The notes beneath the pieces are model-generated. The model was not told the origin of the DNA, did not search any database, and saw only the letters and a program-made list of their open reading frames with translations. The translations under genes were made by a program, and so were the position numbers. Positions 185-53,494 of a stretch of DNA of 64,000 nt are shown in pieces (positions within the stretch are counted from its first letter, which is position 1; each line of letters starts with the position of its first letter). Source of the stretch: an uncultured bacterium. GTDB taxonomy: Bacteria; Fidelibacterota; Marinisomatia; Marinisomatales; TCS56. The stretch lies in NCBI GenBank assembly GCA_964628055.1, contig CAZVNL010000004.1, forward strand, positions 7,209 through 71,208, written 5' to 3'.

Positions 185-1870
185 CTATTTTATCACTAGC
201 AGTTTGCGCACGGCACTCCCGGAGGAGGTGATCATTCGATAGAAATAGATTCCTGAGCTCACTGCCTGGCTATCCCAGACCACCTGGTACTTCCCGGGTG
301 GATAATATCCTTGAAGGAGCGCCTCCACTTGTTCACCCTTAAGGTTGTAGATGACAATCTTGGTGGTTGTAGCTTGTGTTAGCCTAAAGGGGATGACTGT
401 CGTTGCGTTGCAGGGGTTGGGGTAGTTCTGGTCCAGGTGGAAAAAATCGGGGAGGGTAATGACTGACTGGGGAGTTACTAAGGTCGACCGAACCTCGAAG
501 ATGAGCACTCCCACGGGACCGGCGGTGTTTTCATCATCAACGGCATGAAACCATAGGGTATCCGATCCCGTGAAACCTGCAGTGGGAGTGTAGCGGAATT
601 TTCGTTTTCGGGCGCCATATTGGTGAAACGTCCCGTGCTGAGGTATGGTGTCAAGCACGAACCAGAAAATAGCTCCATCGGAATCCTGACCAGTAAATTC
701 CCCCCGGTAAAGGGAATCCTGGAGTACTTCGATTGTTTGGGTGTTGACCAGGGGGGCCTGGTTGGGAGTCCCGTCATAGAGAAAATCCTGCTGAGCAAGG
801 AGATCGTTGTTGCGGTAGATTTTTATTGTCCAATCACCATAATAGTTAGACGTGACTGGTAAGACCCACCAAATATACCACCAGCTACTGGGATAGGTTG
901 TCCCTGGAGAAAAGGTATAGGAATTCCAGAGGCTTCCTTGATAGTAAAATTTCCAGGTCAACTGATCGTTGGTGTGAGCATTACGCAGACGTAACCAGGA
1001 GTACAGGGTGTCTCCCGCCGTAATATGGGTCTTGGTCGGAGGTCGTTCGCAAACCAAGGCCCAGGAAAGGGGCAATGTGGTAAGGCCGTGGGACATGAGT
1101 TGGAAGGGCAAGTTGAGGATGTAATCCGGTTGTTGGGCCCAGCGGGAAGAGTCTGTTTGGCACGGTCCCTGGTAGAGGTCCAGGATCGTGTTATGGTTTA
1201 CTTCAAAGTGTAGGTGAGGGCCGGAAGAGAAGCCTGAACTCCCCACCAGGCCCAGGGTATCTCCCACGGTGACTGAATCTCCCACGGCTACCCGGACAGA
1301 GTTCTTACGCATGTGCCAGTACCAGGCCTCCGAGCCGTCTGGATGCTGCACAATGACGCCATTGGCTTGGACACCGTTAACCCAGGCTGTCCTCCGGTCG
1401 AACTCCCCGTCGTGACGGTAAACCACGTAACCGGAAGCAGCGCTGAGAACGGGAATTCCTTCGTCCATGTCGTAGAAATCCAGAAGTTCAATGTCCGTAC
1501 CCTGATGGCCGTCGTAGGTAACGGATCCGCAGGTATAATCCAGAAGGTTATCACTAGGTGACCAGTCCACATAATTCACGGTGGTTTTACCGGGAGAGTT
1601 GATCCCCCCGCCCCCTAAAGGGTCTTCGAAGAGATAGTCTTGGCGTGGATTAGGTTCTATGGCGCCATAGGCGTGGATTTGTTGCCTCACCAGGTCGTAT
1701 TGGCTGGGGGAAATGCAGTGGTCATGTGGTGTCCGCCCCCCGCCATGGCCGCCTCCCACTACCAACGTTGGGAGCAATACCCCCGTCACCAAAAAGTGTA
1801 AAAAGCAACTCAAAGTCGAATATAGAAACCTACTTTTGGATGACCTTTTTAAACGAATTGTGAAATTCAT
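185..1870 (-). CDS. secreted M23 family metallopeptidase with Ig-like domain and T9SS C-terminal sorting domain
   Basis: 561-aa ORF with an N-terminal hydrophobic signal. M23 motifs are present (YDGHQGTDIE, GSSGFSSGPHLHFEV). An Ig/cadherin-like segment lies near aa 380-470. The C-terminal ~70 aa ends GIYFYRMITSSGSAVRKLLVIK, which is typical of T9SS type-A CTDs. Confidence 0.85.
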   Translation of the reverse strand: MNFTIRLKRSSKSRFLYSTLSCFLHFLVTGVLLPTLVVGGGHGGGRTPHDHCISPSQYDLVRQQIHAYGAIEPNPRQDYLFEDPLGGGGINSPGKTTVNYVDWSPSDNLLDYTCGSVTYDGHQGTDIELLDFYDMDEGIPVLSAASGYVVYRHDGEFDRRTAWVNGVQANGVIVQHPDGSEAWYWHMRKNSVRVAVGDSVTVGDTLGLVGSSGFSSGPHLHFEVNHNTILDLYQGPCQTDSSRWAQQPDYILNLPFQLMSHGLTTLPLSWALVCERPPTKTHITAGDTLYSWLRLRNAHTNDQLTWKFYYQGSLWNSYTFSPGTTYPSSWWYIWWVLPVTSNYYGDWTIKIYRNNDLLAQQDFLYDGTPNQAPLVNTQTIEVLQDSLYRGEFTGQDSDGAIFWFVLDTIPQHGTFHQYGARKRKFRYTPTAGFTGSDTLWFHAVDDENTAGPVGVLIFEVRSTLVTPQSVITLPDFFHLDQNYPNPCNATTVIPFRLTQATTTKIVIYNLKGEQVEALLQGYYPPGKYQVVWDSQAVSSGIYFYRMITSSGSAVRKLLVIK

Positions 1871-1979
1871 TGTTATATTATCACAAAGTGCAAGGAAGGT
1901 TTTTTTCAGCTTACCATTTTCATAGAATCTTTGTAGGTTTAATGGTTGTATCGTTCTCTATTTGAAGTTGGAGGTATGT

Positions 1980-2480
1980 ATGAAAAGAATCTTAAACATT
2001 ACGGCCCTGTTGAGCGGCGCCTTGTGGATGTCTTGTACTACCATGTCCTTTCTTCCCCGGGAAGGTACGGTTTCCAAGTTTAATTTGGCTACTGTAGAAT
2101 ATGTACAGACAGTGAACCAAACCCAACGGGAAACCATGGCACAGGAATTATTCGATCAACTTGATCCCATGCTGGACTCCCTGTTAGCAGGTGACCGGGA
2201 GACTGTGCAGCAATTAGCCACCCTGGTCTCGGAACAGGAAAAAAAGCTCACCACGCTCTCAGCCGAAATGGACAGTACTGAAGCTAATGTCCTTAAAGTC
2301 TCCAGCAAGATGCTTCGGGACCTGGCGGACTTGCGTTCGGCTAACACCAACATGCAACTATACATTGACCAGTTAAAAGGTAACCTGGAGAGCCTTCCGT
2401 TGAACATGTTGCGGGAGCTCAACACCGCCATTGAGCAGTATATCCAGGCCAACAACCCCTCTGAGACGACTACTGAATAA
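1980..2480 (+). CDS. hypothetical coiled-coil lipoprotein
   Basis: ATG at 1980 lies 5 nt after GGAGG (1970-1974). The signal peptide MKRILNITALLSGALWMSC has a lipobox-like Cys. The rest is helical and Gln/Leu-rich. The ORF-track start at 1962 (TTG) is less likely. Confidence 0.6.
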   Translation: MKRILNITALLSGALWMSCTTMSFLPREGTVSKFNLATVEYVQTVNQTQRETMAQELFDQLDPMLDSLLAGDRETVQQLATLVSEQEKKLTTLSAEMDSTEANVLKVSSKMLRDLADLRSANTNMQLYIDQLKGNLESLPLNMLRELNTAIEQYIQANNPSETTTE

Positions 2481-2679
2481 GACCTTTTACCACTTTTTTG
2501 CTGTACTGAGAATAACCGGCGGTACAGTTTTAAGCAGATTCGGTTTTCAGGGGGGAATCAAACGGTAGTTAGTTGTGGGGAACAGGTCATAACGCCATCA
2601 TTCCATTTTTCGTTCTTTTGTCATTAATACGACTTCCCCATTTCAACGGGTACTGTTAGGCGATATTCGTTTTCGTTTA

Positions 2680-3300
2680 GTGCGTAATGGAGATTCCCGG
2701 CGGCGCTACATCTGGATACACGGGGATGAAGACACGGCTCGACGGGCGCTCGATCACCATCTCCAAACCGCTAGAGGGTGGGCTTTTTATATCGAGAGTT
2801 CCACCCGCGAGGTATCCTTTGGTGATGGTCGGATTGACCCCAACCGCATGTTCAGTCGCTCGGGAGCGGTGAGTGATTTTCTCCGCTGTAACCCCCAGTG
2901 GACGCCTGCTTACTTAGCAACCCAACTGAATTTACTCGACGAGGCTCGAGAAACCTTTTTAAACCTTCTGTTGCCACCGCCGGGGGGACTTTTAGTCTCG
3001 GTTCATAACAATTCCCAGGGGTATTCGTTGGAGACCGAACGGGATAAAAGTCAGGCCCAGGTGGTGAGGAGCGGTGTCGATCTCCATGACTTCTTCCTTT
3101 GTGTGGCTGAAAAAGATTTCGCCATTTTACAGGATTCCCCTTACAATGTTATTCTCCAGGCGAAGAATATTGAGGATGACGGTTCCCTCTCCTGCCTGGC
3201 TGCCCGGCGAGGGGTTCGCTATGTGAATTGCGAAGTGTCTTTAGGGAATCTTGCCCGGCAACAGGCAATGTTGGCCTATCTTGATGAGCATTTAGACTAA
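2680..3300 (+). CDS. hypothetical protein, possible zinc-hydrolase-like (IHGDE ... DPNRMF ... SVHNN motifs)
   Basis: 206-aa ORF with a GTG start. The motif pattern loosely recalls AstE/AspA or M14-like hydrolases, but I cannot place it in a family. Confidence 0.45.
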   Translation: MRNGDSRRRYIWIHGDEDTARRALDHHLQTARGWAFYIESSTREVSFGDGRIDPNRMFSRSGAVSDFLRCNPQWTPAYLATQLNLLDEARETFLNLLLPPPGGLLVSVHNNSQGYSLETERDKSQAQVVRSGVDLHDFFLCVAEKDFAILQDSPYNVILQAKNIEDDGSLSCLAARRGVRYVNCEVSLGNLARQQAMLAYLDEHLD

Positions 3301-3316
3301 AACTTTAATCCTAAGC

Positions 3317-3799
3317 TCAGTTTCCCCTGGTTGCCTTTCTCTGAGAAGAGCGCCAGTAAAAGAGTAGAACCAGCCCGGCGAGATTAGGAAACCAGACCAA
3401 TGGATGTGACCAGGGAACCCCGGAGAAGGTGACGGAAGAGAGGGGCCAGAGGAATTTTGTGGGGAAAAAGGCCCGGGTGTGGAAGGGGAGATCTAACAGA
3501 ATGTGGAATGGCCAGGCCAACAGCGGAAAAACGAGCGGTTTTTTCCACCTCCACACGCACACTAACAGTAAAGAGACAACCAATAGACTATGGGTTAAAT
3601 CATAGACCCAAAGCAACCAGGTTGGCAATGTATCTAACGGGGGCGGTCCGAATTTTAAAGGTCCTTGAAACAACCGAAAAGGAAGGTAGAGACCAAAGGA
3701 GACTAAATCGGGGAAGGCGCCCCAAAAGGTTGCCCACCAGGGGTGTCCACGGTAGCCAAACAGACCCCGCCCCCATAAAGCGTGACTTAACGTATCCAC
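3317..3799 (-). CDS. membrane-bound metal-dependent hydrolase, YdjM/DUF457-like
   Basis: 160 aa and multi-TM. The N-terminus MDTLSHALWG and the His-rich C-terminal TM segment (PFHILLDLPFH) are typical of DUF457. Confidence 0.7.
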   Translation of the reverse strand: MDTLSHALWGRGLFGYRGHPWWATFWGAFPDLVSFGLYLPFRLFQGPLKFGPPPLDTLPTWLLWVYDLTHSLLVVSLLLVCVWRWKKPLVFPLLAWPFHILLDLPFHTRAFFPTKFLWPLSSVTFSGVPWSHPLVWFPNLAGLVLLFYWRSSQRKATRGN

Positions 3800-5444: not shown

Positions 5445-6596
5445 TCAGACTTCCATCTGAGATTCGGCCAGGGCCAGGCGCTCCCCAATGGGTGGATGGG
5501 AGTAATACAACACTTTCACCCACCAGACAGGGTAGGCGTTGGAGAGGTTGCGATTGGCCAAGCCGGCTAAGGCTGCTTGGAAGGCTTCTTTCTGGGGAAT
5601 GAGTCGTAGGGCGGTTCGGTCGGCTTGGCGTTCCCAGTAGCGCGCCAGGGCGTGGCTGAGGGGACCCAACACGAACCCGGAAAGGAAACTGAACAGGAGA
5701 ATGAAGACGGGGAAGAGGGTGAGATTCCAGCGGGTATTTTCTAAGAAGTAGGGCCAACCCCAACGCAGGACCCGATCCAGGACGAAGAAAACCACCAGTT
5801 GTTGCAAAGACCCGATGAGGATTTGTTTGGTAAGGTGGTGGTGTTCATAATGCCCTACTTCGTGGGCGATGATGGATTCGATTTCCGGAATACTCATGTG
5901 CGCCAGGAGATTATCAGCTAGCACCACCCTCCGGGTTTCCCCCAGTCCCGCTAAAAAAGCGTTCTCCTTCTTTGTTTGGCGGCTCATATCCTCTTTGAAA
6001 AAGCCACTGGGTCGCAATCCCCCTTTCCTGAGGAGTTTTTCCAGGCGCTGGGTTAAATCTTGATCGTCGATTGGTTCGTATTTATTGAAAATGGGCAGGA
6101 TTACCACGGGGGCCAGGGTTGTCAATAGAACCCCAACGACGATAGAGGCTAAACTGGTGAGCCACCACCAGTGAAGGGGATAGACCGCCATGATCCAAAA
6201 CAACAATCCCACCAGCAAAAGCGATAGGACCAGTCCAACCAGGTAACCCTTGAGTTGTTCAAGTAGCCAGGAGGCCACGGTATGGTTGGAGAAATGCCAC
6301 TTGTGTTCATGGATATATCCGCTGTAGTACCTGAGCGGGAAAGTTACCAAAGTGGCCAGGGTTAGGAGAACGAGCAAGTAGAAAACCACGGTCATGGCCA
6401 TGGTGGAACCGAAACGGAGTTGGGTCAGGTAAGCGCTAAATCCGCTGGCGTAGAACATCAGTAAAAATAGTAACGACAAGAGAAAACCGGCGAGCCCCAG
6501 GAGACGTTTCTCTTTTTCATACTGCTGGGCCTGCCTTTGCTTCTCTTCGTCTAACAAGGGATGGATTGAAGGATTTTTCGTGGTTTTTTCGTGCAT
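5445..6596 (-). CDS. M48 family (Ste24/HtpX-like) integral membrane zinc metalloprotease
   Basis: 383 aa with multiple TM helices. The HEXXH motif is HEVGHYEHHH, and a C-terminal SHPPIGERL motif is present. Confidence 0.9.
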   Translation of the reverse strand: MHEKTTKNPSIHPLLDEEKQRQAQQYEKEKRLLGLAGFLLSLLFLLMFYASGFSAYLTQLRFGSTMAMTVVFYLLVLLTLATLVTFPLRYYSGYIHEHKWHFSNHTVASWLLEQLKGYLVGLVLSLLLVGLLFWIMAVYPLHWWWLTSLASIVVGVLLTTLAPVVILPIFNKYEPIDDQDLTQRLEKLLRKGGLRPSGFFKEDMSRQTKKENAFLAGLGETRRVVLADNLLAHMSIPEIESIIAHEVGHYEHHHLTKQILIGSLQQLVVFFVLDRVLRWGWPYFLENTRWNLTLFPVFILLFSFLSGFVLGPLSHALARYWERQADRTALRLIPQKEAFQAALAGLANRNLSNAYPVWWVKVLYYSHPPIGERLALAESQMEV

Positions 6597-13722: not shown

Positions 13723-13865
13723 ACACCGTGACCCGTCACTCCCCTCGCAGTGGGCCAGGAAAAACACTGGCAGGGCGACCCTCGGTTTTACCATTAGGTG
13801 TTTTTTGGGCAAGCTGTGTTGAAAGTCTTACCCACAGAGCCCTAAAAAGCATTAATTTTATCCCG

Positions 13866-14585
13866 ATGATTGTCCGCTCCTGCCGGTTATTATTACTCCT
13901 CGGGGTCCTGGCCTGTTCTGCCCCCCCTGTTCCGTCTATTTCCCTGGAACGGTCTAACCTGCCTCCGCCCACAGAGACGCCAGCAAAACCGGTCTTACCG
14001 GTGAAATCGCTTCCCCGGGGCTGGATTCTCAACGGCGAGCCCATCGCTAATTGGTCCATAACTTTGACGGCTGTGTTGGGGCTGGGGCTCGATACCACTG
14101 CGGAAGTCGCTTACTGGGAAGACCCGCTAGAATTACCCACGGGAATGATGCTACCTCTAAAGCGGGCCAAGCTCGTTTACCAACACGATACACGCATCAC
14201 CGTGGAGCAGATCGAACTCCAGTTCATTAATGTGGACTACATCTACAGTATCACCAATTACGAGCCCTCCCACTATATCCTGGAACAGATTACAAAAACG
14301 GTGGAAATGAAGAAGACCGGCTTTCCCCAGCTAACCGCCGATGACGTCTTACGCCACAAAATACTCTTCGTCTATGGCACGCCCAAGGAATTCGATGGAA
14401 CCTGGCACACCTATGCCGATACGGAAACGGAAATGAAGGTTCGAGTAGTGGACGATTTCCATGTAACGGTCCAGATGCACAGCCTGAAAGTGGAACAAAA
14501 ACTCCGTCAAGCCATTGAGGACGTCTATTCAGAAGAGGGAATTGAAAACCGCAAGCAGGAACTGCTCCAGGGTATTGATTTATAG
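13866..14585 (+). CDS. hypothetical lipoprotein
   Basis: ATG 13866 gives MIVRSCRLLLLLGVLACSAPP, a signal plus lipobox. The ORF-track GTG at 13728 lies inside the terminator and is rejected. No family recognised. Confidence 0.6.
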   Translation: MIVRSCRLLLLLGVLACSAPPVPSISLERSNLPPPTETPAKPVLPVKSLPRGWILNGEPIANWSITLTAVLGLGLDTTAEVAYWEDPLELPTGMMLPLKRAKLVYQHDTRITVEQIELQFINVDYIYSITNYEPSHYILEQITKTVEMKKTGFPQLTADDVLRHKILFVYGTPKEFDGTWHTYADTETEMKVRVVDDFHVTVQMHSLKVEQKLRQAIEDVYSEEGIENRKQELLQGIDL

Positions 14586-14635: not shown

Positions 14636-15907
14636 ATGAATTTCCTCAAGCTATCTTTGTATTGGGCGTTATGGTTTACCTTCTTGGGGGCGCGAACTCC
14701 CATTGTATCGGAAGTTGTTTTTTCCGGTCAAAAGATCACCAAGCCCTATGTCATCCAACGGGAATTACAGCATCCTGTGGGGGTTCCCCTGGATAGCGCC
14801 CTGGCCGCCGATGACCGGGACCGCCTGGAAAATTTAGGCATCTTTGCCGGGGTAACCTGGGAGGCCATTCCCCTCCCGGACGGGACCGTGCAGCTCCATT
14901 ACCGTGTAGTGGAATCCTTTCGCTTTGTGGGAGGCCCCTTGCCCGTTTACAACGAGGATACGGGTTGGTCCCTGCAATTCGGACTCATCATAAACAATTT
15001 TCGCGGCCGGGACGAAACCTTATCTACTGGGGGAAGTGTAGGGGGACAACGCATGTTTGGCCTGGAGTTTTACGATCCCTGGATTGTGGGGGATCATGTT
15101 TCTCTTGCCATTCAAACAGGGCGCAACGTACAGGCCCATCTTTTTCTACCTTATGATGTTAAAACCAATTCGTTTGAGGCCAACATTGGCCGCTATTTCG
15201 GCTACGAATGGAAAACTAGTTTGGGATTTGAATTAGAGGAAAAGGCGTTCGTCAATCCACACCGTCAACTGGATTATCGTTACTTTGCACCCCAGGGAAC
15301 GTTTCAATACGATACACGGGACATTTACCTGGAGCCCACTCGGGGGGTTCATTTTGTTCAATCATTTTATTCACTGCTTTATTTCACCGGTAGCCCCCAC
15401 GGTTCAACAACAATCTGGCGCCACTCTTACAGCCTGTTCCACACCCTGAAAAAGGGGTCGCGAAAACGTATTCTAGCCCTTAACTACTCTTCAAGGATTA
15501 CCCTAGGAGTGCAGGATTCCGTCTGGCTGGATTATATCGGCGGAGCCTTTACCGTCCGGGGATGGAGCATTCCCAGTCGGGCTTTATTTGCCGATGGCGG
15601 GCAACCCTATCGTTTTGGACAGCACTACGGCACCGCCTCGGTGGAAATTCGCCAGGTGATCATTCCCCGCTACGTGACGCGGTTCAAAACCGAGTTCGGA
15701 TTGACAATCGCCTTTTTTATAGATGCTGGTCTAGCCGGTAACACTGTCCGGGCAATACTCAAGGAAGCGCCCTTGATGGGAACCGGCTTCAGTTTTCAGA
15801 TTCCCTGGCCGGTTTTTGGGATTATTCGCTTCGATTACGGTTGGGGATTCCACAATGGCGCTTTCCGCGACCGCGCCTTTCATTTTTCCTTCCAGCAGAA
15901 GTTTTAA
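14636..15907 (+). CDS. Omp85/BamA-family outer membrane protein (one POTRA domain plus beta-barrel)
   Basis: 423 aa with a signal peptide. A POTRA-like segment is present (VVFSGQKITKPYVIQRELQHPVGVPLDSALAADDRDRLENLGIF). The barrel is aromatic-rich and ends in FQQKF, a terminal-Phe OMP signature. Confidence 0.8.
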   Translation: MNFLKLSLYWALWFTFLGARTPIVSEVVFSGQKITKPYVIQRELQHPVGVPLDSALAADDRDRLENLGIFAGVTWEAIPLPDGTVQLHYRVVESFRFVGGPLPVYNEDTGWSLQFGLIINNFRGRDETLSTGGSVGGQRMFGLEFYDPWIVGDHVSLAIQTGRNVQAHLFLPYDVKTNSFEANIGRYFGYEWKTSLGFELEEKAFVNPHRQLDYRYFAPQGTFQYDTRDIYLEPTRGVHFVQSFYSLLYFTGSPHGSTTIWRHSYSLFHTLKKGSRKRILALNYSSRITLGVQDSVWLDYIGGAFTVRGWSIPSRALFADGGQPYRFGQHYGTASVEIRQVIIPRYVTRFKTEFGLTIAFFIDAGLAGNTVRAILKEAPLMGTGFSFQIPWPVFGIIRFDYGWGFHNGAFRDRAFHFSFQQKF

Positions 15908-15908
15908 A

Positions 15909-16571
15909 CTATTTCCTCCTGCGCAGGACCATCGCCTTTTCGAAACGGTTTTCTGACCCCTCCCGCAGCCGGGCGATGTTACTGCGGTGTGTATAGACCA
16001 CGAACCAGGGGATCAGTAGGCTAAAGATGATTAGCGACATAGGAGCGGGCTGGAGAATCCCCAGGGGAGGCAACAGGAGCAGGAAAAGGGGCAGGGCCAC
16101 GGAGGCCATGATGGAACTGAGGGAGACATAGCCACTCATCATTAGGGTAATAACAAAAACTGTTAGGCATAAGGGAAACACGATGGGGTAAAGGGCCAGG
16201 AGCATCCCCGCCAGGGTTCCTACGCCTTTGCCCCCACGAAACCCGGCAAAGACCGTGTACGTGTGCCCCAGAACGGCGGCAAAGCCACAAAGGATCTGAA
16301 TAACTCCTTGATCTATGGTCAGTTGGCCCGGGAATAGATAAAGGGCGTACAAGAATGTGGCCAGCCAGCCTTTGAATACATCCACAATAACCACCACCAG
16401 GGCTGGTTTCCAACCCAGGACGCGGAAGACGTTGGTGCCGCCGGCGTTACCGCTTCCGTGCTCCCGGATGTCAATACCCCGGACGATTTTTCCCACGATG
16501 ATGCTGGTGGGGAAAGAGCCGGTGAGATAACTGGCTACTAAAAGTAATAAGAGCATGGTCATGGTATTCAT
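15909..16571 (-). CDS. plsY: glycerol-3-phosphate acyltransferase PlsY (acyl-phosphate dependent)
   Basis: 220 aa and multi-TM, with motifs GSGNAGGTNVFRVLG and FRGGKGV. Its start overlaps the upstream stop (ATGA at 16568-16571). Confidence 0.93.
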   Translation of the reverse strand: MNTMTMLLLLLVASYLTGSFPTSIIVGKIVRGIDIREHGSGNAGGTNVFRVLGWKPALVVVIVDVFKGWLATFLYALYLFPGQLTIDQGVIQILCGFAAVLGHTYTVFAGFRGGKGVGTLAGMLLALYPIVFPLCLTVFVITLMMSGYVSLSSIMASVALPLFLLLLPPLGILQPAPMSLIIFSLLIPWFVVYTHRSNIARLREGSENRFEKAMVLRRRK

Positions 16572-18355
16572 AAAGTTACCTCCTCCACTGTTTGAACGGC
16601 AATGGCGATGGAGTTTGGACCGGCATGGACCCCCAGGGCAGGCCCCACTTCGGTGAGGTACACGTTATCCGCGCCGACGATAGATTCCATAGCGGTGGCC
16701 ACTTCCTGAGCTTTATCTAAACATTGGGCATGGCCGACAGCAATGCGTACTTTTTTATCTTTTGGAATGCGCTTCAATACAAACTGTACAAACTTTTCGT
16801 GCTTCTTTTTTCCACCCCACAGGTACTTAACGGTTTTTACTCCCTGTTGCGCGACGGTTAAAATAGGGTGAATTCGGAAAAATTCCGCCACTATTTGTTT
16901 GGACCGGGAGATGCGTCCCCCTTTAACTAAGTATGAAAGGGTGTCCAGGCTGATGTACAACTTGGTCTGTTTCACGGCTTCTTTCGTGGTGGCTAATACC
17001 TCGGCAAACTTTTTCCCGGCCTGCACTGCTTCCGCGGCCCGGATAGCCACCAATCCCATCCCGATGGAAACGTTTTGGGAATCCACCACCGCGGCGGTGA
17101 AATTATCTAACGAACGGAGTGCCGTCCGCGCCGACTGACATGTGCCGCTGACGCTCTCCGGCAGGTGAATGGAGATGGCGTACCGGTAGTGGCTGGCCAG
17201 GAATTGGTACTGGCGGAGAAAGTCCCCCGGGGGCGGCTGGGAAGTTTGCGGGTGTATGGGATTGGTAACCAACTCCCGCCAGAACTCCTTACCGTTAATG
17301 GTCATTTTGTCAATGTAATGTTGCGGGCCGAAGTTCAAGCGCACCGGAATGACGTGAATGTTCAAGCGTTCCAGCACCGCATCCGGTAAGTCGCAACCGG
17401 AATCCACCACCACAGCAATGTCCCGGACTACGCGTCGGGCATCCTTCGCCTGGCGGTACATGTCATCGGCTTTTTCGTCGCTAATGGTACCGTACTGTTG
17501 GCAAATATTCAACACGGCCCGCGGATCATTGGTGTGGATATGAACGCGAACCTTGTTGGCCAGCCCGGCCACCACGATGCTGTTGCCTAAAGCGGCTAAA
17601 GAGCGCTGGATTTCCCGACGGTTGATCTTTTCCCCCCTTACCACGCACTCCATACAGAATTGGTACCGTTCCCCGTCAGTGGTCGTCTCGGGGATTTGTT
17701 TCGTTTCCGGGGAGGTGAGGGTAACGAGTTGAGTCGTGCCTTCACGGATGTAATCCTGAATCCCCCGCAGGAGGTCCACGAACCCCTGTCCCCCTGCGTC
17801 CACGACCCCGGCCTTGGCCAGGACACTTAACTTTTGAGGCGTCTCTAATAGGGCCTTCTGGGCAGACTCCAGGGCTTCCTGTAACAGGATTTTGAAGTCC
17901 ATTAAGGAATCACACGCTGTTTGTAGGGTTTTTACCCATTGGGAAATAACGGTGAGGATGGTTCCTTCTTGGGGTTGGACGAGGGCTTCGTAGGCTAAGG
18001 TTCGGGCAGTCTCCATGGCGGCTGCAAAGCCGTTTGTGTTTAACTGTTCCTGGTTGTTCACCCCTTTGGCAAAGCCCACTAAAAATTGCGCCAGGATTGC
18101 CCCCGAATTCCCCCGCGCCCCGTCCAAGGCAGCCGTAGCGAGGGTGGTGGACATGACACTTAGATCAGGGCTTACTTCTTGTTGAATTCGTTTTTTAATG
18201 GCCATGAGGGTATAGGCCAGGTTGGTCCCCGTGTCGCCATCGGGAACAGGAAAGACGTTGATTTTATTTAAATAATCTTCGCGGGCGAGTACCCGGTGCA
18301 ACCCCGCCTGGAAAGTCCGATAGAGGCGGATTCCGTCAAGATATTGAATGGCCAT
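16568..18355 (-). CDS. fusion protein: FakA-like Dak2 kinase plus middle domains (aa 1-310) joined to a DegV/FakB fatty-acid-binding domain (aa 311-595)
   Basis: The N-terminus has VFPVPDGDTGTNL, GARGNSGAILAQF and VVDAGGQGF (Dak2/DhaL). The middle region YQFCMECVV...VRVHIHTNDPRAVLNICQQYG resembles the YloV middle domain. The C-terminus has IAVVVDSGCDLP, HPQTSQPPPGDF, SIHLPESVSGTCQSA, LSYLVKGGRISRS and GPALGVHAGPNSIAIAV (DegV). Confidence 0.8.
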   Translation of the reverse strand: MAIQYLDGIRLYRTFQAGLHRVLAREDYLNKINVFPVPDGDTGTNLAYTLMAIKKRIQQEVSPDLSVMSTTLATAALDGARGNSGAILAQFLVGFAKGVNNQEQLNTNGFAAAMETARTLAYEALVQPQEGTILTVISQWVKTLQTACDSLMDFKILLQEALESAQKALLETPQKLSVLAKAGVVDAGGQGFVDLLRGIQDYIREGTTQLVTLTSPETKQIPETTTDGERYQFCMECVVRGEKINRREIQRSLAALGNSIVVAGLANKVRVHIHTNDPRAVLNICQQYGTISDEKADDMYRQAKDARRVVRDIAVVVDSGCDLPDAVLERLNIHVIPVRLNFGPQHYIDKMTINGKEFWRELVTNPIHPQTSQPPPGDFLRQYQFLASHYRYAISIHLPESVSGTCQSARTALRSLDNFTAAVVDSQNVSIGMGLVAIRAAEAVQAGKKFAEVLATTKEAVKQTKLYISLDTLSYLVKGGRISRSKQIVAEFFRIHPILTVAQQGVKTVKYLWGGKKKHEKFVQFVLKRIPKDKKVRIAVGHAQCLDKAQEVATAMESIVGADNVYLTEVGPALGVHAGPNSIAIAVQTVEEVTL

Positions 18356-18397: not shown

Positions 18398-19012
18398 CTA
18401 AGGGTTTGGGGAGACTGATTTTTCCTGTTTTAAGGGATTTTTCGTCGGGGCTAACAGCCCTCCCGAAATGATCGCTTTCAGTCCTTCTTCCACGTTGACT
18501 TGGGCCTTGAGGGTATCCTTTTTAGGGACCACAATGAAAAATCCGGAGGTTGGATTGGGCGTGGTGGGCACGAAAACGTGGAAATATTCGGTCCCCTGGT
18601 CATCCTTTGATTCTCCAGTAACGAAGGCCATGGTCCACAGACCCAACCGGGGATACTGAATGTAGATCACCCGCTGAAAATTGCGGGAGGAGGCCGCTCC
18701 TGAAAAGGCGTGGGTAATTTGTTTGATGGCCTTGTAAATGGTGCTAACCAGGGGAATGGAGGTAATAATTTTCTCCGCCCATTGGAAAAGCCGTCTTCCT
18801 AACACGTTAGTTACGAACAGGCCCAGGAAATAAACCATGACTACGGTCAAGATGATCCCCAGGCCGGGAATTTGTACTTTTAGGGCTTTGAGAATGGGAG
18901 CCGTGAGTCTGTCCAATTGGCTTAGGATGACCTTCAGAATCCAAAGGGTCAGGGCCAGGGGAACGATTGCGATCAGGCCGGTAAAAATTGATCGTTTAAA
19001 GTGACTCCACAT
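18398..19012 (-). CDS. DUF502 domain membrane protein
   Basis: 204 aa. The N-terminus FTGLIAIVPLALTLWIL, two TM helices and the segment FVPTTPNPTSGFFIVVPK are typical of DUF502. Confidence 0.8.
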   Translation of the reverse strand: MWSHFKRSIFTGLIAIVPLALTLWILKVILSQLDRLTAPILKALKVQIPGLGIILTVVMVYFLGLFVTNVLGRRLFQWAEKIITSIPLVSTIYKAIKQITHAFSGAASSRNFQRVIYIQYPRLGLWTMAFVTGESKDDQGTEYFHVFVPTTPNPTSGFFIVVPKKDTLKAQVNVEEGLKAIISGGLLAPTKNPLKQEKSVSPNP

Positions 19013-19016
19013 GGAT

Positions 19017-19586
19017 TTAGATGGCGGCGTTCACGCTTGGTTTAAACTTGGGTTTACCCTGCCAGGGAAGGGTTGCTCCCTCTAATTCTAAGAGTGTCAC
19101 CTTGCGGTCCAGACGTCCCCCGTAGCCCCCTAAGCTGCCGTTGTGGCCCACCACCCGATGGCAAGGAATAATGATGGGTATGGGATTGCGGGCGTTGGCG
19201 CTCCCCACGGCGCGTACGGCCAGGGGATTGTTCACCCGTTGGGCAATTTCCTTGTAGGAGGCTGTGTTTCCATACGGAATCTTCCGGACCGCTTCTAAAA
19301 CCTTTTTGTAAAAGGGTGGCACATGGTAGTCCAATGCTAGGCCGAAACGCTTCCGTTCCCCGGCGAAATAGGCCTGGAGCTGGTCGATTGCCAACTGTAA
19401 GCTGGGGTTATCTTCCTGGATGGTTTCTCCCGGGAATTGAGCTTGTAAAGAGGCCGGTAACTGTGGTGTTGCTTCAGGAAAACAGAGTCGGCAGACACCC
19501 CTCTGTGTCCGGGCAATACCCAGGGGCCCAAACGGCGAGGTCAAAGTTGTGTAAGTTATCATGACTCCTGTTTCCATAAAGCGCAC
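19017..19586 (-). CDS. ogt: methylated-DNA--protein-cysteine methyltransferase
   Basis: The active site IIPCHRVVG and the helix-turn-wing segment YGNTASYKEIAQRV are present. The start is uncertain (GTG 19586, ATG 19577 or ATG 19562). Confidence 0.9.
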   Translation of the reverse strand: MRFMETGVMITYTTLTSPFGPLGIARTQRGVCRLCFPEATPQLPASLQAQFPGETIQEDNPSLQLAIDQLQAYFAGERKRFGLALDYHVPPFYKKVLEAVRKIPYGNTASYKEIAQRVNNPLAVRAVGSANARNPIPIIIPCHRVVGHNGSLGGYGGRLDRKVTLLELEGATLPWQGKPKFKPSVNAAI

Positions 19587-40923: not shown

Positions 40924-41988
40924 ATGCCACCTATTACGATTGCTTTGGATGCCATGGGGGGCGATCACGCCCCTCAAGAAATTGTTGCCGGCGCTTTAGA
41001 GGCGATGCGCTCTCACCCGGTAAAAATCATTTTTGTAGGTGACCGCCAGGCTATCGAAGAACATGTTCAACAACGTGGTACTGAACCTGGCTCGTATGAA
41101 ATTCTCCACACTCCCCAGGTGATAACCATGGAAGAAGCCCCCAAGGAGGCCGTGGAGCAAAAGCCGGATGCCTCCATTGCCCTGGCGGCGCAATTGGTGG
41201 GCTCGGGGAAGGCCGACGCCCTGGTGTCGGCCGGGAGTACCGGATCGGTAGTGTTGTCGGCGGCGAAATATATCCCCCGGATTTATGGAGTACGGCGCAC
41301 CGCCATTGCTACCGTTTATCCCACGCTAAATGAGAGTAAACGGCAGGACAATCTCGCATTAATGGTTGACGTGGGGGCTAATGTGAAGTGCAGCGCCGAA
41401 GAACTGGTACAGTTTGCCATCATGGGGTCGGTTTACGTGGCGGATATTCGCGGGGTTACGGACCCGAAAGTGGCTCTGTTGAATATCGGGGAAGAGGCCA
41501 CTAAAGGGGGCAAAAAAATGCAGGAAGCCTACCGTTTGTTAAAGAAGGTGCCGGGCATTTCCTTTAGCGGAAACGTTGAGGGAAAAGACATCTTGCGGGG
41601 GATTGTGGACGTCATCGTTACCGAAGGATTTGTGGGGAATATTGTGGTGAAGACGTTGGAAGGGGCGGCCAAGACGGTAAGCCAGTTGGGAAAAATGGCT
41701 TTCAAAGCCCGATTGGGTTGGAAGGTTGGCTTGTTTTTCCTGCGTAAAGGCTTGGCTATCTTACGGGAAGTTACCGACTATACAGAATACGGCGGGGCAC
41801 CCCTATTGGGGTTCGATAAAATCGTGATTATTGCCCACGGTCGCTCCAACGCCAAAGCTGTGGCCAATGCCATTAAGTTGGCCAGTAAATGCGTACGGGA
41901 CGATGTCTGTGGGATCATTGCGAAAAAAATCCGTACTTTTGAGACCGAACCGGGACGTGAATATGGACGTCTGTCAGACGAGTATTGA
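40924..41988 (+). CDS. plsX: phosphate acyltransferase PlsX
   Basis: 354 aa with motifs IALDAMGGDHAP, SAGSTG and EGFVGN. Confidence 0.95.
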   Translation: MPPITIALDAMGGDHAPQEIVAGALEAMRSHPVKIIFVGDRQAIEEHVQQRGTEPGSYEILHTPQVITMEEAPKEAVEQKPDASIALAAQLVGSGKADALVSAGSTGSVVLSAAKYIPRIYGVRRTAIATVYPTLNESKRQDNLALMVDVGANVKCSAEELVQFAIMGSVYVADIRGVTDPKVALLNIGEEATKGGKKMQEAYRLLKKVPGISFSGNVEGKDILRGIVDVIVTEGFVGNIVVKTLEGAAKTVSQLGKMAFKARLGWKVGLFFLRKGLAILREVTDYTEYGGAPLLGFDKIVIIAHGRSNAKAVANAIKLASKCVRDDVCGIIAKKIRTFETEPGREYGRLSDEY

Positions 41989-42058
41989 GGGGGAGCAATT
42001 AGGACCAGATCAAAAAATTGATTTTGCACTAACCGGGTAAGATGTAGAGAGGATTTAC

Positions 42059-43057
42059 ATGGAGATGCAATACCGAACGTTGGGGAATTCAGGATTACGT
42101 TTGAGCGTTTTCTCTTACGGGTCGTGGATAACCTTTGGCAATCAGGTTGGTTTAGAAGAAGCCCAGAAGCTCATGAAGACGGCTTACGATGCTGGAGTGA
42201 ATTTTTTCGATAATGCCGAGGTTTACACCCAGGGGAAATCGGAAGAGATCATGGGGCAGGCGGTCCGTCGTTTGGGGTGGAGTCGGGATAGTTTTTGTGT
42301 GTCCAGTAAAGTGTTTTTTGGGGGGCAGCGTCCTACCCAGCGGGGGCTGCATCGTAAACACATCACCGAGGCCTGCCATGGGGCTTTACGGCGGCTTCAG
42401 GTGGAGTACCTGGACCTTTTTTTCTGTCATCGCCCCGACCACCATACCCCCATTGTAGAAACAGTGCGGGCCATGCATACCCTGGTTTTACAGGGGAAAA
42501 TATTGTATTGGGGGACTTCCGAATGGAGTGCCGATCAAATTCGTACGGCTTATGCCGTGGCCCGGGAGCATCATTTGACCCCTCCCACGATGGAACAACC
42601 AGAATATAACCTCTTCGAACGTCAGAAAATGGAACGGGAGTATCGGGACCTTTTCCGGGATGAACACCTAGGGACGACCGTTTGGTCTCCGTTGGCTTCG
42701 GGTATTTTAACAGGGAAATACAGCCGGGGGATACCTGAAAACACTCGCATGAAGGTGGAAGGTTATCAATGGTTACAGGAACGTTTGCTTTCCCCCGAAG
42801 GAAAGGAGCGAATTGCTAAGGTGCGGGAGCTGTCCCAATTGGCCGATGAAGTTGGGATTAAATTGGTCCATCTGGTGCTGGGGTGGTGTTTACAAAATCC
42901 CAACGTAAGCACGGTAATCTTAGGAGCCTCCAAAGTATCCCAATTGAAAGAGAACCTGAAAACCCTAAAAGTGTTAAACGTTTTCACCTCTGAGCTTATG
43001 GAGCAGATCGAGGGGATTGTCCAGACCAAACCGCAAATGCCCATGCAGTTTGAATGA
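42059..43057 (+). CDS. aldo/keto reductase (Kv-beta-like subfamily)
   Basis: 332 aa with motifs YRTLGNSGLRLS, FFDNAEVY, LDLFFCHRPD and WGTSEW. Confidence 0.9.
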   Translation: MEMQYRTLGNSGLRLSVFSYGSWITFGNQVGLEEAQKLMKTAYDAGVNFFDNAEVYTQGKSEEIMGQAVRRLGWSRDSFCVSSKVFFGGQRPTQRGLHRKHITEACHGALRRLQVEYLDLFFCHRPDHHTPIVETVRAMHTLVLQGKILYWGTSEWSADQIRTAYAVAREHHLTPPTMEQPEYNLFERQKMEREYRDLFRDEHLGTTVWSPLASGILTGKYSRGIPENTRMKVEGYQWLQERLLSPEGKERIAKVRELSQLADEVGIKLVHLVLGWCLQNPNVSTVILGASKVSQLKENLKTLKVLNVFTSELMEQIEGIVQTKPQMPMQFE

Positions 43058-43074
43058 AGGACTTTTAGACAATT

Positions 43075-43845
43075 ATGGGTGACTGGCGGGAATTTTCACC
43101 TACTGTTAGGACTTCTTTGCGATTATATCCCTGGAGTAGGATACGTCCCATTCCCTGGGCCACACTGCCCAAGCCCCTTTGCCAGTCGAAAGTGGCGGTT
43201 GTCTCTACGGCAGGCCTGGTATTACCCACCCAGGAGGAGTTCGATCCGAGCATTAAGGGCGGCGATTATACGCACCGGGTTATCCCTGCGAATGTTGATT
43301 TGGAAACGCTTCGGGACACCCACCGTAGCCGCGTGTTCGACCACGACGGCTACCGTTCAGATCCTAATTTGGCTTTTCCCCTGGACCGGTTGCGGGAACT
43401 CCAGGAAGACAAGGTCATTGGAGCCCTGGGCGAACATCACATTTCTCTTATGGGGTCGATTACGGCGCCTGGTAGATTGAAAAAAATGACCGCTCCCAAG
43501 GTTGCCAATCTTTTTCTTGAAGAGGGTGTTGATGCTGTGCTATTGTTTCCGGTGTGACCTTTTTGTAACCAGACCGTGAGCCTGGTTGCGGCAACCGTCG
43601 AACAGGTGGGAATTCCTACCGTTGTCATTCAGTTTATTTGGGAAATTGCCAGGAAAATAAAACCTCCCCGGGCGTTATTAGTCCCCTATTGTCACGGATA
43701 CCCCCTGGGAGAACCCCATAATATTCCTCTTCAAAAGGACATTTTGCAGCGAGCGTTGAATTTATTGAACCATCCAGGACCACCACCAGTTTTAGAAACA
43801 TTCTCCCCGTCGGCTACACCGGTGACCCCTGAGAAAGGAGATTAG
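43075..43845 (+). CDS. GrdB/PrdB-family selenoprotein (Sec encoded by TGA 43555-43557), short form
   Basis: ORFs 43075..43557 and 43576..43845 share one frame and are separated only by TGA plus 6 sense codons. The junction LLFPV-U-PFCNQTVSLVAATVEQVGIPTVV...PYCHGYPLGEP parallels the GrdB Sec region as I recall it. A candidate SECIS hairpin lies 7 nt downstream. Confidence 0.75.
43564..43590 (+). promoter_or_regulatory. candidate bacterial SECIS stem-loop
   Basis: UGUAACCAG (43564-72) pairs with CUGGUUGCG (43582-90), giving 7 Watson-Crick and 2 G-U pairs. The 9-nt loop ACCGUGAGC contains GU. The hairpin starts 7 nt after the UGA. Confidence 0.6.
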
Positions 43846-52540: not shown

Positions 52541-53494
52541 ATGGAAAAAGCAATTGAATTAAAAGGGGTTGACCTGGCGGCGCTTCTGGGGGTGGCCGAC
52601 GCGCACCTGCGAATTATTTCGGAAAGTTTCCCCACCCAGGTGGTTGTACGGGGGAATCAACTGCGCCTAAGGGGTGAAAATGAACAAGTGCAATTAGTCA
52701 GCCAAGTCATCCATGAGATGTTACAGACGCTCAGCCGCAAAGGGAGCCTTACCCCGAAGGATGTGCGTCAGCTCATCCAGATGGCGCACGTCGATAACGG
52801 GCATCCTCCTACGCCGGTTGAAAATGTCATTCATTACGGCCGCAAGGGGGCCATAGTAGCCCGGACAAAGGGCCAACAGGTTTACGCCGATGCCATTAAG
52901 GAAAACGATATTGTCTTTTCCGTTGGCCCGGCTGGAACGGGGAAAACCTATATTGCCGTTGCCTTTGCCATCGCCGCCCTGGAAAACCATGAAGTGGACC
53001 GTATTATCCTCTGTCGCCCAGCAGTGGAGGCGGGAGAAAACCTGGGCTTTTTGCCGGGTGATTTAAAAGAGAAAGTCAACCCTTACTTAACCCCCCTCTA
53101 TGACGCTCTGAACGACATCATTCCAGCCCCTCGATTAAAAACCCTCCTGGCCCACAACACCATTGAGATAATTCCCCTGGCTTACATGCGGGGACGAACC
53201 CTGAACAATGCCTTTCTCATTTTGGACGAAGCCCAGAATTCCACTCCCCTCCAGATGAAGATGTTCCTCACCCGCCTGGGAGTCAATTCCAAAACCGTCA
53301 TTACCGGTGATATAACCCAGATCGACCTACCCCGTTCCAGCGATTCGGGATTGGTGCAAGTCATGGAAATTTTAAAGGGCATTGACGGCATTGGTTTCGC
53401 CTTTCTCAACGAAACGGACGTGGTGCGGCATAAACTGGTGCGGGACATCATCCGGGCCTACGACCAGTCCCCGGGCAACCACGATGATTCCTGA
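52541..53494 (+). CDS. phoH: PhoH family ATPase
   Basis: 317 aa with Walker A GPAGTGKTY and Walker B ILDEAQN. An N-terminal KH-like region is present. Confidence 0.93.
   Translation: MEKAIELKGVDLAALLGVADAHLRIISESFPTQVVVRGNQLRLRGENEQVQLVSQVIHEMLQTLSRKGSLTPKDVRQLIQMAHVDNGHPPTPVENVIHYGRKGAIVARTKGQQVYADAIKENDIVFSVGPAGTGKTYIAVAFAIAALENHEVDRIILCRPAVEAGENLGFLPGDLKEKVNPYLTPLYDALNDIIPAPRLKTLLAHNTIEIIPLAYMRGRTLNNAFLILDEAQNSTPLQMKMFLTRLGVNSKTVITGDITQIDLPRSSDSGLVQVMEILKGIDGIGFAFLNETDVVRHKLVRDIIRAYDQSPGNHDDS

Follow-up and report, generated by a model that had tools for sequence, protein, structure and literature searches.

Fatty acid kinase (Fak) is described in Firmicutes (S. aureus, S. suis, E. faecalis, B. 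subtilis YloV/DegV) as a system of two proteins, FakA and FakB. FakA carries a Dak2 domain that binds ATP-Mg (FakA_N), a Zn-cluster middle domain (FakA_M) and a C-terminal domain (FakA_C), and the fatty acid is carried by FakB, a stand-alone DegV-family protein of ~280–290 amino acids (aa). FakA_C is a reduced DegV/EDD fold without the inserts and the Arg of FakB, and it docks FakB (PMC9136124, PMC10848957). One FakA serves several FakBs of different selectivity. FakAB is described as a Gram-positive route, Gram-negatives being given acyl-coenzyme A/acyl-acyl carrier protein (acyl-ACP) synthetases (2023 review, PMC10146087). Here, we describe a gene that joins the first two FakA domains to a DegV domain in one reading frame, next to plsY. 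It lies in a stretch of 64,000 nucleotides (nt), the window, from an uncultured bacterium of the phylum Fidelibacterota (Marinisomatia, TCS56; GenBank assembly GCA_964628055.1, contig CAZVNL010000004.1, positions 7,209 to 71,208). Judging from its sequence, the product is very probably functional as a single-chain fatty acid kinase and would supply PlsY with acyl-phosphate.

The residues on which Fak depends are known from mutagenesis of the S. aureus and S. suis proteins. In S. aureus FakA, Asn32, Asp38, Asp40, Thr41, Asn82 and Asp185 bind ADP-(Mg)2, and Cys240, His282 and His284 are needed for activity or dimer stability. In FakB, phosphotransfer strictly requires Arg173 (Arg170 in FakB2); Arg205/202 contacts FakA, through FakA_C, and the membrane (PMC9136124, PMC10848957). 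The location of the active site was still disputed in 2024. One model has the fatty acid phosphorylated inside FakB docked on FakA_N; in the alternative, FakA_C receives it first and pairs with the FakA_N of the partner. No structure of the active, fatty-acid-loaded Fak complex exists (PMC11617999). A preprint notes Dak2-DegV fusions as already reported, with reference to Erni et al. 2006, and places them near heliorhodopsin genes in Chloroflexi and Firmicutes; it also ties DegV to gene neighbourhoods, of unknown function, with DUF1295 and heliorhodopsin (10.1101/2021.02.16.431466).

The predicted fused gene and its domains are as follows.

16568..18355, (-) strand: fused fatty acid kinase gene (Dak2, FakA middle and DegV/FakB in one reading frame), 595 aa, ATG start.
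17741..18319, (-) strand: Dak2/DhaL-type ATP-Mg binding domain, aa 13–205, the FakA_N equivalent (PF02734, 131 bits).
17435..17671, (-) strand: FakA middle domain (dimerisation, Zn cluster), aa 229–307 (PF21645, 70 bits).
16592..17419, (-) strand: complete DegV/FakB fatty-acid-binding domain, aa 313–588, in the position of FakA_C (PF02645, 228 bits; TIGR00762, 255 bits).

The three domains follow one another in a single open reading frame (ORF), as in the Dak2-FakA_M-DegV class of proteins (~590–630 aa). Pfam matches Dak2 at aa 36–200 (131.1 bits), FakA-like_M at aa 231–304 (70.4 bits) and DegV at aa 313–588 (227.8 bits, cut-off 27), the last covering profile positions 2–278 of 280. The NCBIfam DegV model TIGR00762 scores 255.2 bits against a cut-off of 99.7. 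The FakA-like_C profile (PF13684), in contrast, reaches just 17–19 bits, below its cut-off of 23, where DegV scores 228–231 bits. The full-length models behave in the same way: NF038248 (FakA) gives 181 bits against a cut-off of 975 and TIGR03599 (YloV) 299 bits against 396.1, both through their first ~300 positions only, and these matches are confined to aa 13–307. The middle domain closes in a helix (residues 299–307), a linker of ~5 residues follows, and the first DegV strand starts at residue 313. The DegV domain, here the C-terminal part of a longer chain and not a stand-alone protein, aligns end-to-end with B. subtilis DegV, S. aureus FakB2, T. thermophilus DegV and S. suis FakB2.

These results agree with a first-pass annotation of the window, which had proposed a single-polypeptide fatty acid kinase with a full DegV domain in place of the FakA C-terminal domain. 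All 11 sequence motifs that it quoted are present in the translation of the 595-aa ORF. The Dak2 domain contains DGDTGTN (39–45), GARGNSG (79–85) and VVDAGGQG (184–191), and the middle domain YQFCMECVV (231–239), VHIHTNDP (271–278) and QQYG (286–289). The DegV domain contains IAVVVDSGCDLP (313–324), TSQPPPGDF (371–379), SVSGTCQSA (401–409), LVKGGRISRS (476–485) and GVHAGPNSIAI (575–585). The domain models, the conserved catalytic and ligand residues, the predicted fold and the conserved operon with plsY, as detailed below, support the assignment as a kinase. A 100% identical protein is present in NCBI, relatives with 87–88% identity share its architecture, and the GC content near the gene is unremarkable.

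The functional residues of both Fak proteins have counterparts in the fused chain. In alignments to S. suis FakA and S. aureus FakA_N, N33, D39, D41, T42, N83 and D186 correspond to the six nucleotide ligands N32, D38, D40, T41, N82 and D185 of S. aureus FakA, and C234, H272 and H274 align with its C240, H282 and H284. For FakB2 the carboxylate network is reported to be Thr61-Ser93-His266 (Broussard et al. 2016, the paper behind PDB 4x9x). In the alignment to 4x9x, T371, S403, R481 and H577 correspond to T61, S93, R170 and H266 of FakB2. All 13 mapped residues, from N33 to H577, are invariant across 24 relatives. In a wider set of 158 diverse fused homologues (32–52% identity), D39, D41, D186, S403, G480 and R481 are each kept in every sequence, and the position of T371 is always Thr or Ser. 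N33 and T42 are each present in 157 of the 158, C234 and H272 in 156, H274 in 155 and N83 in 154. Such near-invariance over diverse fusions therefore indicates that both halves are under purifying selection for catalytic function. By its sequence, the fused protein thus combines an intact Dak2 ATP-Mg site, a Zn-cluster dimerisation domain and a complete FakB-type pocket, which keeps the Thr-Ser-His carboxylate network and the phosphotransfer Arg.

Structure prediction, a check proposed along with the first-pass annotation, gives folds that match FakA_N and free FakB/DegV. The AlphaFold monomer model has a predicted local distance difference test score (pLDDT) of 81.3. In Foldseek comparisons its Dak2 domain superimposes on S. 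aureus FakA_N (7rzk, 7rm7, 8vip) with template modelling (TM) scores of 0.85–0.90 and a root-mean-square deviation (rmsd) of 1.5–1.6 Å, and its DegV domain on ~45 free FakB/DegV chains with TM scores of 0.80–0.87 over ~280 residues. The middle region is modelled as strands (233–298) followed by the helix at 299–307. Because the model matches free FakBs, the C-terminal part is best described as a complete FakB-type domain with the fatty-acid inserts, and not as FakA_C. Compared as a whole chain with the crystal structure of S. suis FakA, the model gives a TM score of 0.31 and an rmsd of 25 Å, which does not inform on the quaternary arrangement.

Further evidence is the coupling to plsY.

15909..16571, (-) strand: plsY, acyl-phosphate:glycerol-3-phosphate acyltransferase, 220 aa (PF02660, 179.6 bits; TIGR00023).
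16568..16586, (-) strand: predicted translational-coupling junction, with the Shine-Dalgarno sequence GGAGGAGG at 16586–16579, a 7-nt spacer, and ATGA at 16571–16568.

The stop codon of the fused gene overlaps the start codon of plsY in the ATGA at 16568–16571, as the first-pass annotation had stated and as direct reading of the sequence confirms. The plsY product matches TIGR00023 over aa 6–210 with 177 bits (cut-off 137.2). In-frame ATGs at plsY codons 4 and 6 would give a gap of 6–12 nt instead of the overlap, and the coupling would still be tight. No terminator-like site was found between the two genes. On this sequence evidence, the fused gene is predicted to be co-transcribed and translationally coupled with plsY.

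The arrangement is conserved. We compared 26 related loci, numbered with an L below, from species-representative genomes, nearly all of them labelled Neomarinimicrobiota or Fidelibacterota. In all 22 Fidelibacterota loci that extend past the fused gene, plsY comes next downstream, in the same orientation, even where protein identity falls to 36%. In most loci the spacing, measured from the most upstream in-frame plsY start, lies between an 8-nt overlap and +19 nt; in two it is about +75 nt. Six loci of one divergent Neomarinimicrobiota subclade also carry a gene for a patatin-like phospholipase (PF01734, 98 bits) on the same strand, 75–85 nt upstream of the fusion. They have the cassette patatin-fak-plsY-NUDIX, with the patatin genes at the following positions of each locus.

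L015: 3081–3920.
L016: 1038–1877.
L017: 2776–3633.
L018: 3068–3925.
L021 and L025: 3169–3915.

A patatin gene is absent upstream of the fusion in L010, L011, L013 and the window. In L015 the fak reading frame is open into plsY. A triple Fak-PlsY fusion at L015 4001–6544 was considered and rejected: plsY is split over two frames there, and the long-read assembly probably contains indel errors.

Outside the 26-locus set, in other phyla or clades, the surroundings are as follows.

L031, from another deep clade: plsY downstream with a 4-nt overlap.
L030, also from another deep clade: plsY downstream after a 476-nt gap, with a GPAT-type acyltransferase nearby (1–380 and 5782–6429 for these two genes).
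L029: a divergent PlsC-family acyltransferase and a glycerophosphodiesterase (GDPD) gene (519–3409).
L027 (Ca. Mcinerneyibacterium): a DUF1295 membrane protein gene as neighbour (5754–6533).
L028, from the clade with the Gammaproteobacteria-labelled member: lipid genes not among the neighbours.
L032: lipid genes not among the neighbours.

The DUF1295 gene beside the L027 fusion matches the association of DegV with DUF1295 that has been reported near heliorhodopsin genes.

The fusion itself is widespread. Among clusters at 90% identity, the precomputed Pfam architecture shows the same three domains in each of the 120 best. An exhaustive HMMER scan covered 1.84 billion cluster representatives. 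At 50% identity, each of its 150 best representatives matches across both halves, in a single stretch or in two, at 32–52% identity; 146 of them have lengths of 560–680 aa, and even the last of the 150 reaches 350 bits. Among named relatives the closest, at 87% identity, comes from a Fidelibacterota bacterium, and many of those at 51–54% are labelled Neomarinimicrobiota or Marinimicrobia. Named members belong to Fidelibacterota, Gammaproteobacteria, Spirochaetales, Acidobacteriota and Mcinerneyibacteriota, for example:

TYB31836.1: Ca. Mcinerneyibacterium.
HKK02903.1: metagenome-assembled genome (MAG) of Gammaproteobacteria.
NCN05757.1: Spirochaetales MAG.
HSB63039.1: Thermoanaerobaculia MAG.

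The first-pass annotation set the fusion against the two-protein system of Firmicutes. The fusion is real, but it is less unusual than this contrast implies, being abundant over several diderm phyla and already mentioned in the literature. The window protein has the same domain combination as the Dak2-DegV fusions of the 2021 preprint and belongs to that class, which is thus widespread, noted before and not new in kind. The preprint gives the class one line, without residue analysis, structure, distribution or function, and without mention of Fidelibacterota members or of a linkage to plsY or patatin. The 'Dak2-DegV fusions' described earlier still (Kinch et al. 2005, Erni 2006) may be YloV itself. 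A natural FakA-FakB fusion is not mentioned in the structural, mechanistic or review literature on Fak that we examined, and literature searches found neither a characterised fused Fak nor a Fak in Marinimicrobia, spirochetes or Acidobacteria. What appears to be undescribed so far is the dominance of the fusion in Fidelibacterota, the conservation of its operon with plsY over deep divergence, and the cassette of phospholipase, kinase and acyltransferase. In databases the ~600-aa homologues are labelled 'DegV family (EDD domain-containing) protein' or 'hypothetical'; no NCBIfam model matches them end to end above its cut-off, so annotation misses the kinase half.

Compared with Firmicute Fak, the fused protein has the same Dak2 ATP-Mg ligands, the same Zn-cluster middle domain, and the same FakB fold with its Thr/Ser/Arg/His residues. 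The predicted product is likewise acyl-phosphate, with the same PlsY and PlsX downstream. The differences are in how the parts are assembled. The fusion is one polypeptide and not two, and it lacks the FakA_C docking domain of Firmicute FakA, a substrate-carrying DegV domain taking its place. As a result, kinase and binding domain are fixed at 1:1, in contrast to a FakA shared among FakBs. In addition, the host belongs to a diderm phylum and has the gene in an operon with plsY, whereas the Fak literature treats the pathway as a Gram-positive strategy.

Another described relative is dihydroxyacetone kinase, the DhaK/DhaL system. Like it, the fused protein would bring an EDD-fold substrate domain and a Dak2/DhaL nucleotide domain together in one dimeric enzyme, and by analogy the EDD domain of each chain should build the active site with the Dak2 domain of its partner (PMC10848957). 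The order of domains is reversed, Dak2 coming first and the EDD-type domain last, and an extra Zn-cluster dimerisation domain stands between them. The substrate domain is DegV, with its fatty acid tunnel, and not DhaK; the DhaK profile (PF02733) has no match in the fused protein. Glycerone kinase models score 29–42 bits on the Dak2 part only, for example 32.5 bits for TIGR02361 (cut-off 575) and 41.6 for NF011049 (cut-off 492).

The third comparison is with the PlsX/PlsY pathway, both enzymes of which are encoded in the window and score above curated cut-offs.

40924..41988, (+) strand: plsX, acyl-ACP:phosphate transacylase (acyl-phosphate <-> acyl-ACP), unlinked to the fused gene (PF02504, 333.6 bits).

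The position of plsX elsewhere in the window, at 40924, is as the first-pass annotation gave it. The fused kinase would be a second entry to acyl-phosphate, like Fak in Firmicutes, and it is the kinase gene, not plsX, that is physically coupled to plsY.

The following mechanism can be proposed. The protein would dimerise through its middle domain, as FakA does, and the tethered DegV domain would draw a free fatty acid out of the inner membrane. The exposed carboxylate would then be offered to the gamma-phosphate of ATP on a Dak2 domain, which is probably that of the other protomer, by analogy with FakA_C/FakA'_N and with DhaK/DhaL. The covalent tether would take over the FakB-docking job of FakA_C. 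At the membrane the acyl-phosphate would be passed to PlsY and converted to lysophosphatidate, and PlsX would turn part of it into the acyl-ACP used at the sn-2 position. Either an exogenous fatty acid or one freed from lipids by phospholipases could serve as substrate; the patatin phospholipase gene upstream in one subclade suggests lipid turnover or scavenging as the source. The first-pass annotation had proposed a hard-wired channel from exogenous fatty acid through acyl-phosphate to lysophosphatidate. The coupling to plsY stands, but the words 'exogenous' and 'hard-wired channel' go further than the sequence does, lipid turnover being an equally possible source.

Several observations weigh against a single-chain kinase that feeds PlsY. 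H577, the His266 equivalent, is His in just 131 of the 158 diverse fused homologues. At the site of FakB Arg202/205 there is no fixed Arg but a variable, Lys/Arg-rich loop (G514–K521); this loop is rich in indels and aligns K517 (against SaFakB2) or G514 (against SsFakB2) with the Arg, and residues 512–522 average three Lys/Arg family-wide. The linkers of the monomer model have low pLDDT, and its inter-domain geometry is not trustworthy. The plsY linkage is missing in Mcinerneyibacterium, in the Gammaproteobacteria-labelled context and in two others. Literature searches found no biochemical or genetic evidence for any fused member. Finally, stand-alone degV genes are possible beyond the 64-kb window, within which no second degV, fakA or plsY was found. 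A Dak2-like match at 52891–53022 (tblastn, E = 0.004) is due to chance, as it lies antisense inside a PhoH gene.

Stand-alone degV genes would favour an alternative that is unlikely overall. It holds that the kinase half mainly serves free-standing FakBs, the fused DegV domain being a docking or regulatory module that resembles FakA_C and not a substrate carrier. Canonical FakA does use a DegV-derived C-terminal domain for FakB docking, but the fused domain has the full inserts and length of a FakB (profile positions 2–278 of 280), and the carboxylate-binding Thr/Ser/His and the phosphotransfer Arg, which are missing from FakA_C, are near-invariant in the fused family. The FakB-binding residues of FakA_C have no counterpart either, since the FakA_C profile scores below its cut-off.

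It is very unlikely that the ligand is something other than a common free fatty acid, whether the protein phosphorylates it or only binds it, and that the product is no substrate of PlsY. The adjacency of plsY would then be a matter of co-regulation alone, such as the sensing of lipid status by Fak/SaeRS in S. aureus. All solved DegV proteins among the structure matches bind fatty acids, by their entry titles, and the carboxylate network and the Arg are conserved in the fused family. In favour of this reading are the different neighbours outside Fidelibacterota (DUF1295, type II secretion system genes, peptidases) and the preprint's link of DegV to DUF1295/heliorhodopsin neighbourhoods (10.1101/2021.02.16.431466). 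Set against this, the tight translational coupling to PlsY, called the only known consumer of acyl-phosphate, persists over deep divergence, and the phospholipase and acyltransferase neighbours fit lipid salvage.

There is a negligible chance that the single ORF is a truncated fakA and a degV merged by sequencing or assembly error: metagenome-assembled genomes can err in general, and the related locus L015 has probable indels, but the unbroken fusion recurs in all 120 best 90%-identity clusters and in 150/150 of the best representatives at 50% identity, which come from different phyla and independent samples; this excludes an assembly or frameshift artefact, and the junction is itself conserved across the 24 relatives (D297, D298 and Q302 invariant, D305 and A306 nearly so), with a tightly constrained spacing from the HxH motif to the DegV start (median 44 residues).

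A functional single-chain kinase that feeds PlsY therefore remains the preferred explanation, and it bears on how FakA_C is to be understood. As FakA_C is a reduced DegV-like fold, the fusion holds the intact version of the domain found at the same position, and not an unrelated one. It is conceivable, though doubtful, that the fused protein represents a minimal and possibly ancestral fatty acid kinase, in which a DhaK/DhaL-like site is formed with the partner Dak2 domain and from which Firmicute FakA is derived, and that it belongs to a dedicated lipid-salvage operon of Marinimicrobia/SAR406 with PlsY and, in some lineages, patatin. If so, the cis-FakB of Firmicutes would have degenerated to a docking module once free FakB paralogues had appeared, and acyl-phosphate-based fatty acid scavenging would be widespread in diderm bacteria and not a Gram-positive speciality. 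Similarity to FakA_C was tried as a sign of fusion versus fission and dropped as uninformative: the FakA_C profile gives 19, 45, 16, 17.5, none and 31 bits on fused DegV domains and 15, 33, 31 bits and none on free FakBs, that is, no difference. Average-linkage clustering on identity shows many deep clades, but it is unrooted, and no evolutionary direction is drawn from it.

The fusion may be of use in the active-site dispute. A covalent FakA(N+M)-FakB without FakA_C would be a natural non-dissociating homodimer, and a ligand-bound structure of it could show the DegV/Dak2 active site. In addition, a fatty-acid salvage route into phospholipid is probably overlooked when the metabolism of Marinimicrobia and others is reconstructed, because the fusion occurs commonly in several diderm phyla yet is annotated only as 'DegV family protein'. 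The fusion would thus correct both that annotation and the 'Gram-positive only' view of Fak. Nothing is overturned, as the chemistry and all the domains were already known.

The gene directly upstream of the fusion is a possible operon partner.

18398..19012, (-) strand: DUF502 membrane protein gene, 42 nt upstream of the fused gene (PF04367, 113.8 bits).

It occupies the same place in nine of the closer Fidelibacterota loci (L002, L003, L005, L006, L007, L009, L019, L020 and L023), and its placement was confirmed in L005. Upstream of the DUF502 gene lies an O6-methylguanine methyltransferase gene (19017–19586), again as in L005.

On the other side, an Omp85/POTRA (BamA-like) gene at 14636–15907 on the (+) strand is convergent with plsY; one base separates the two, which leaves no room for a terminator on either strand. 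In L005 the same Omp85 gene is convergent with plsY at a gap of ~6 nt. The adjacent BamA-like gene fits a diderm organism. Before it, on the (+) strand, a 285-aa ORF (13728–14585) has an apparent N-terminal hydrophobic segment and no Pfam match at E<=0.001.

In other bacteria the genes fabH, fabD, fabG and acpP often come after plsX. In the window, plsX is followed by an aldo/keto reductase gene (region 40924–43057) and not by these genes. Beyond it, a 160-aa ORF (43075–43557) matches just the C-terminal third of glycine/sarcosine/betaine reductase selenoprotein B.

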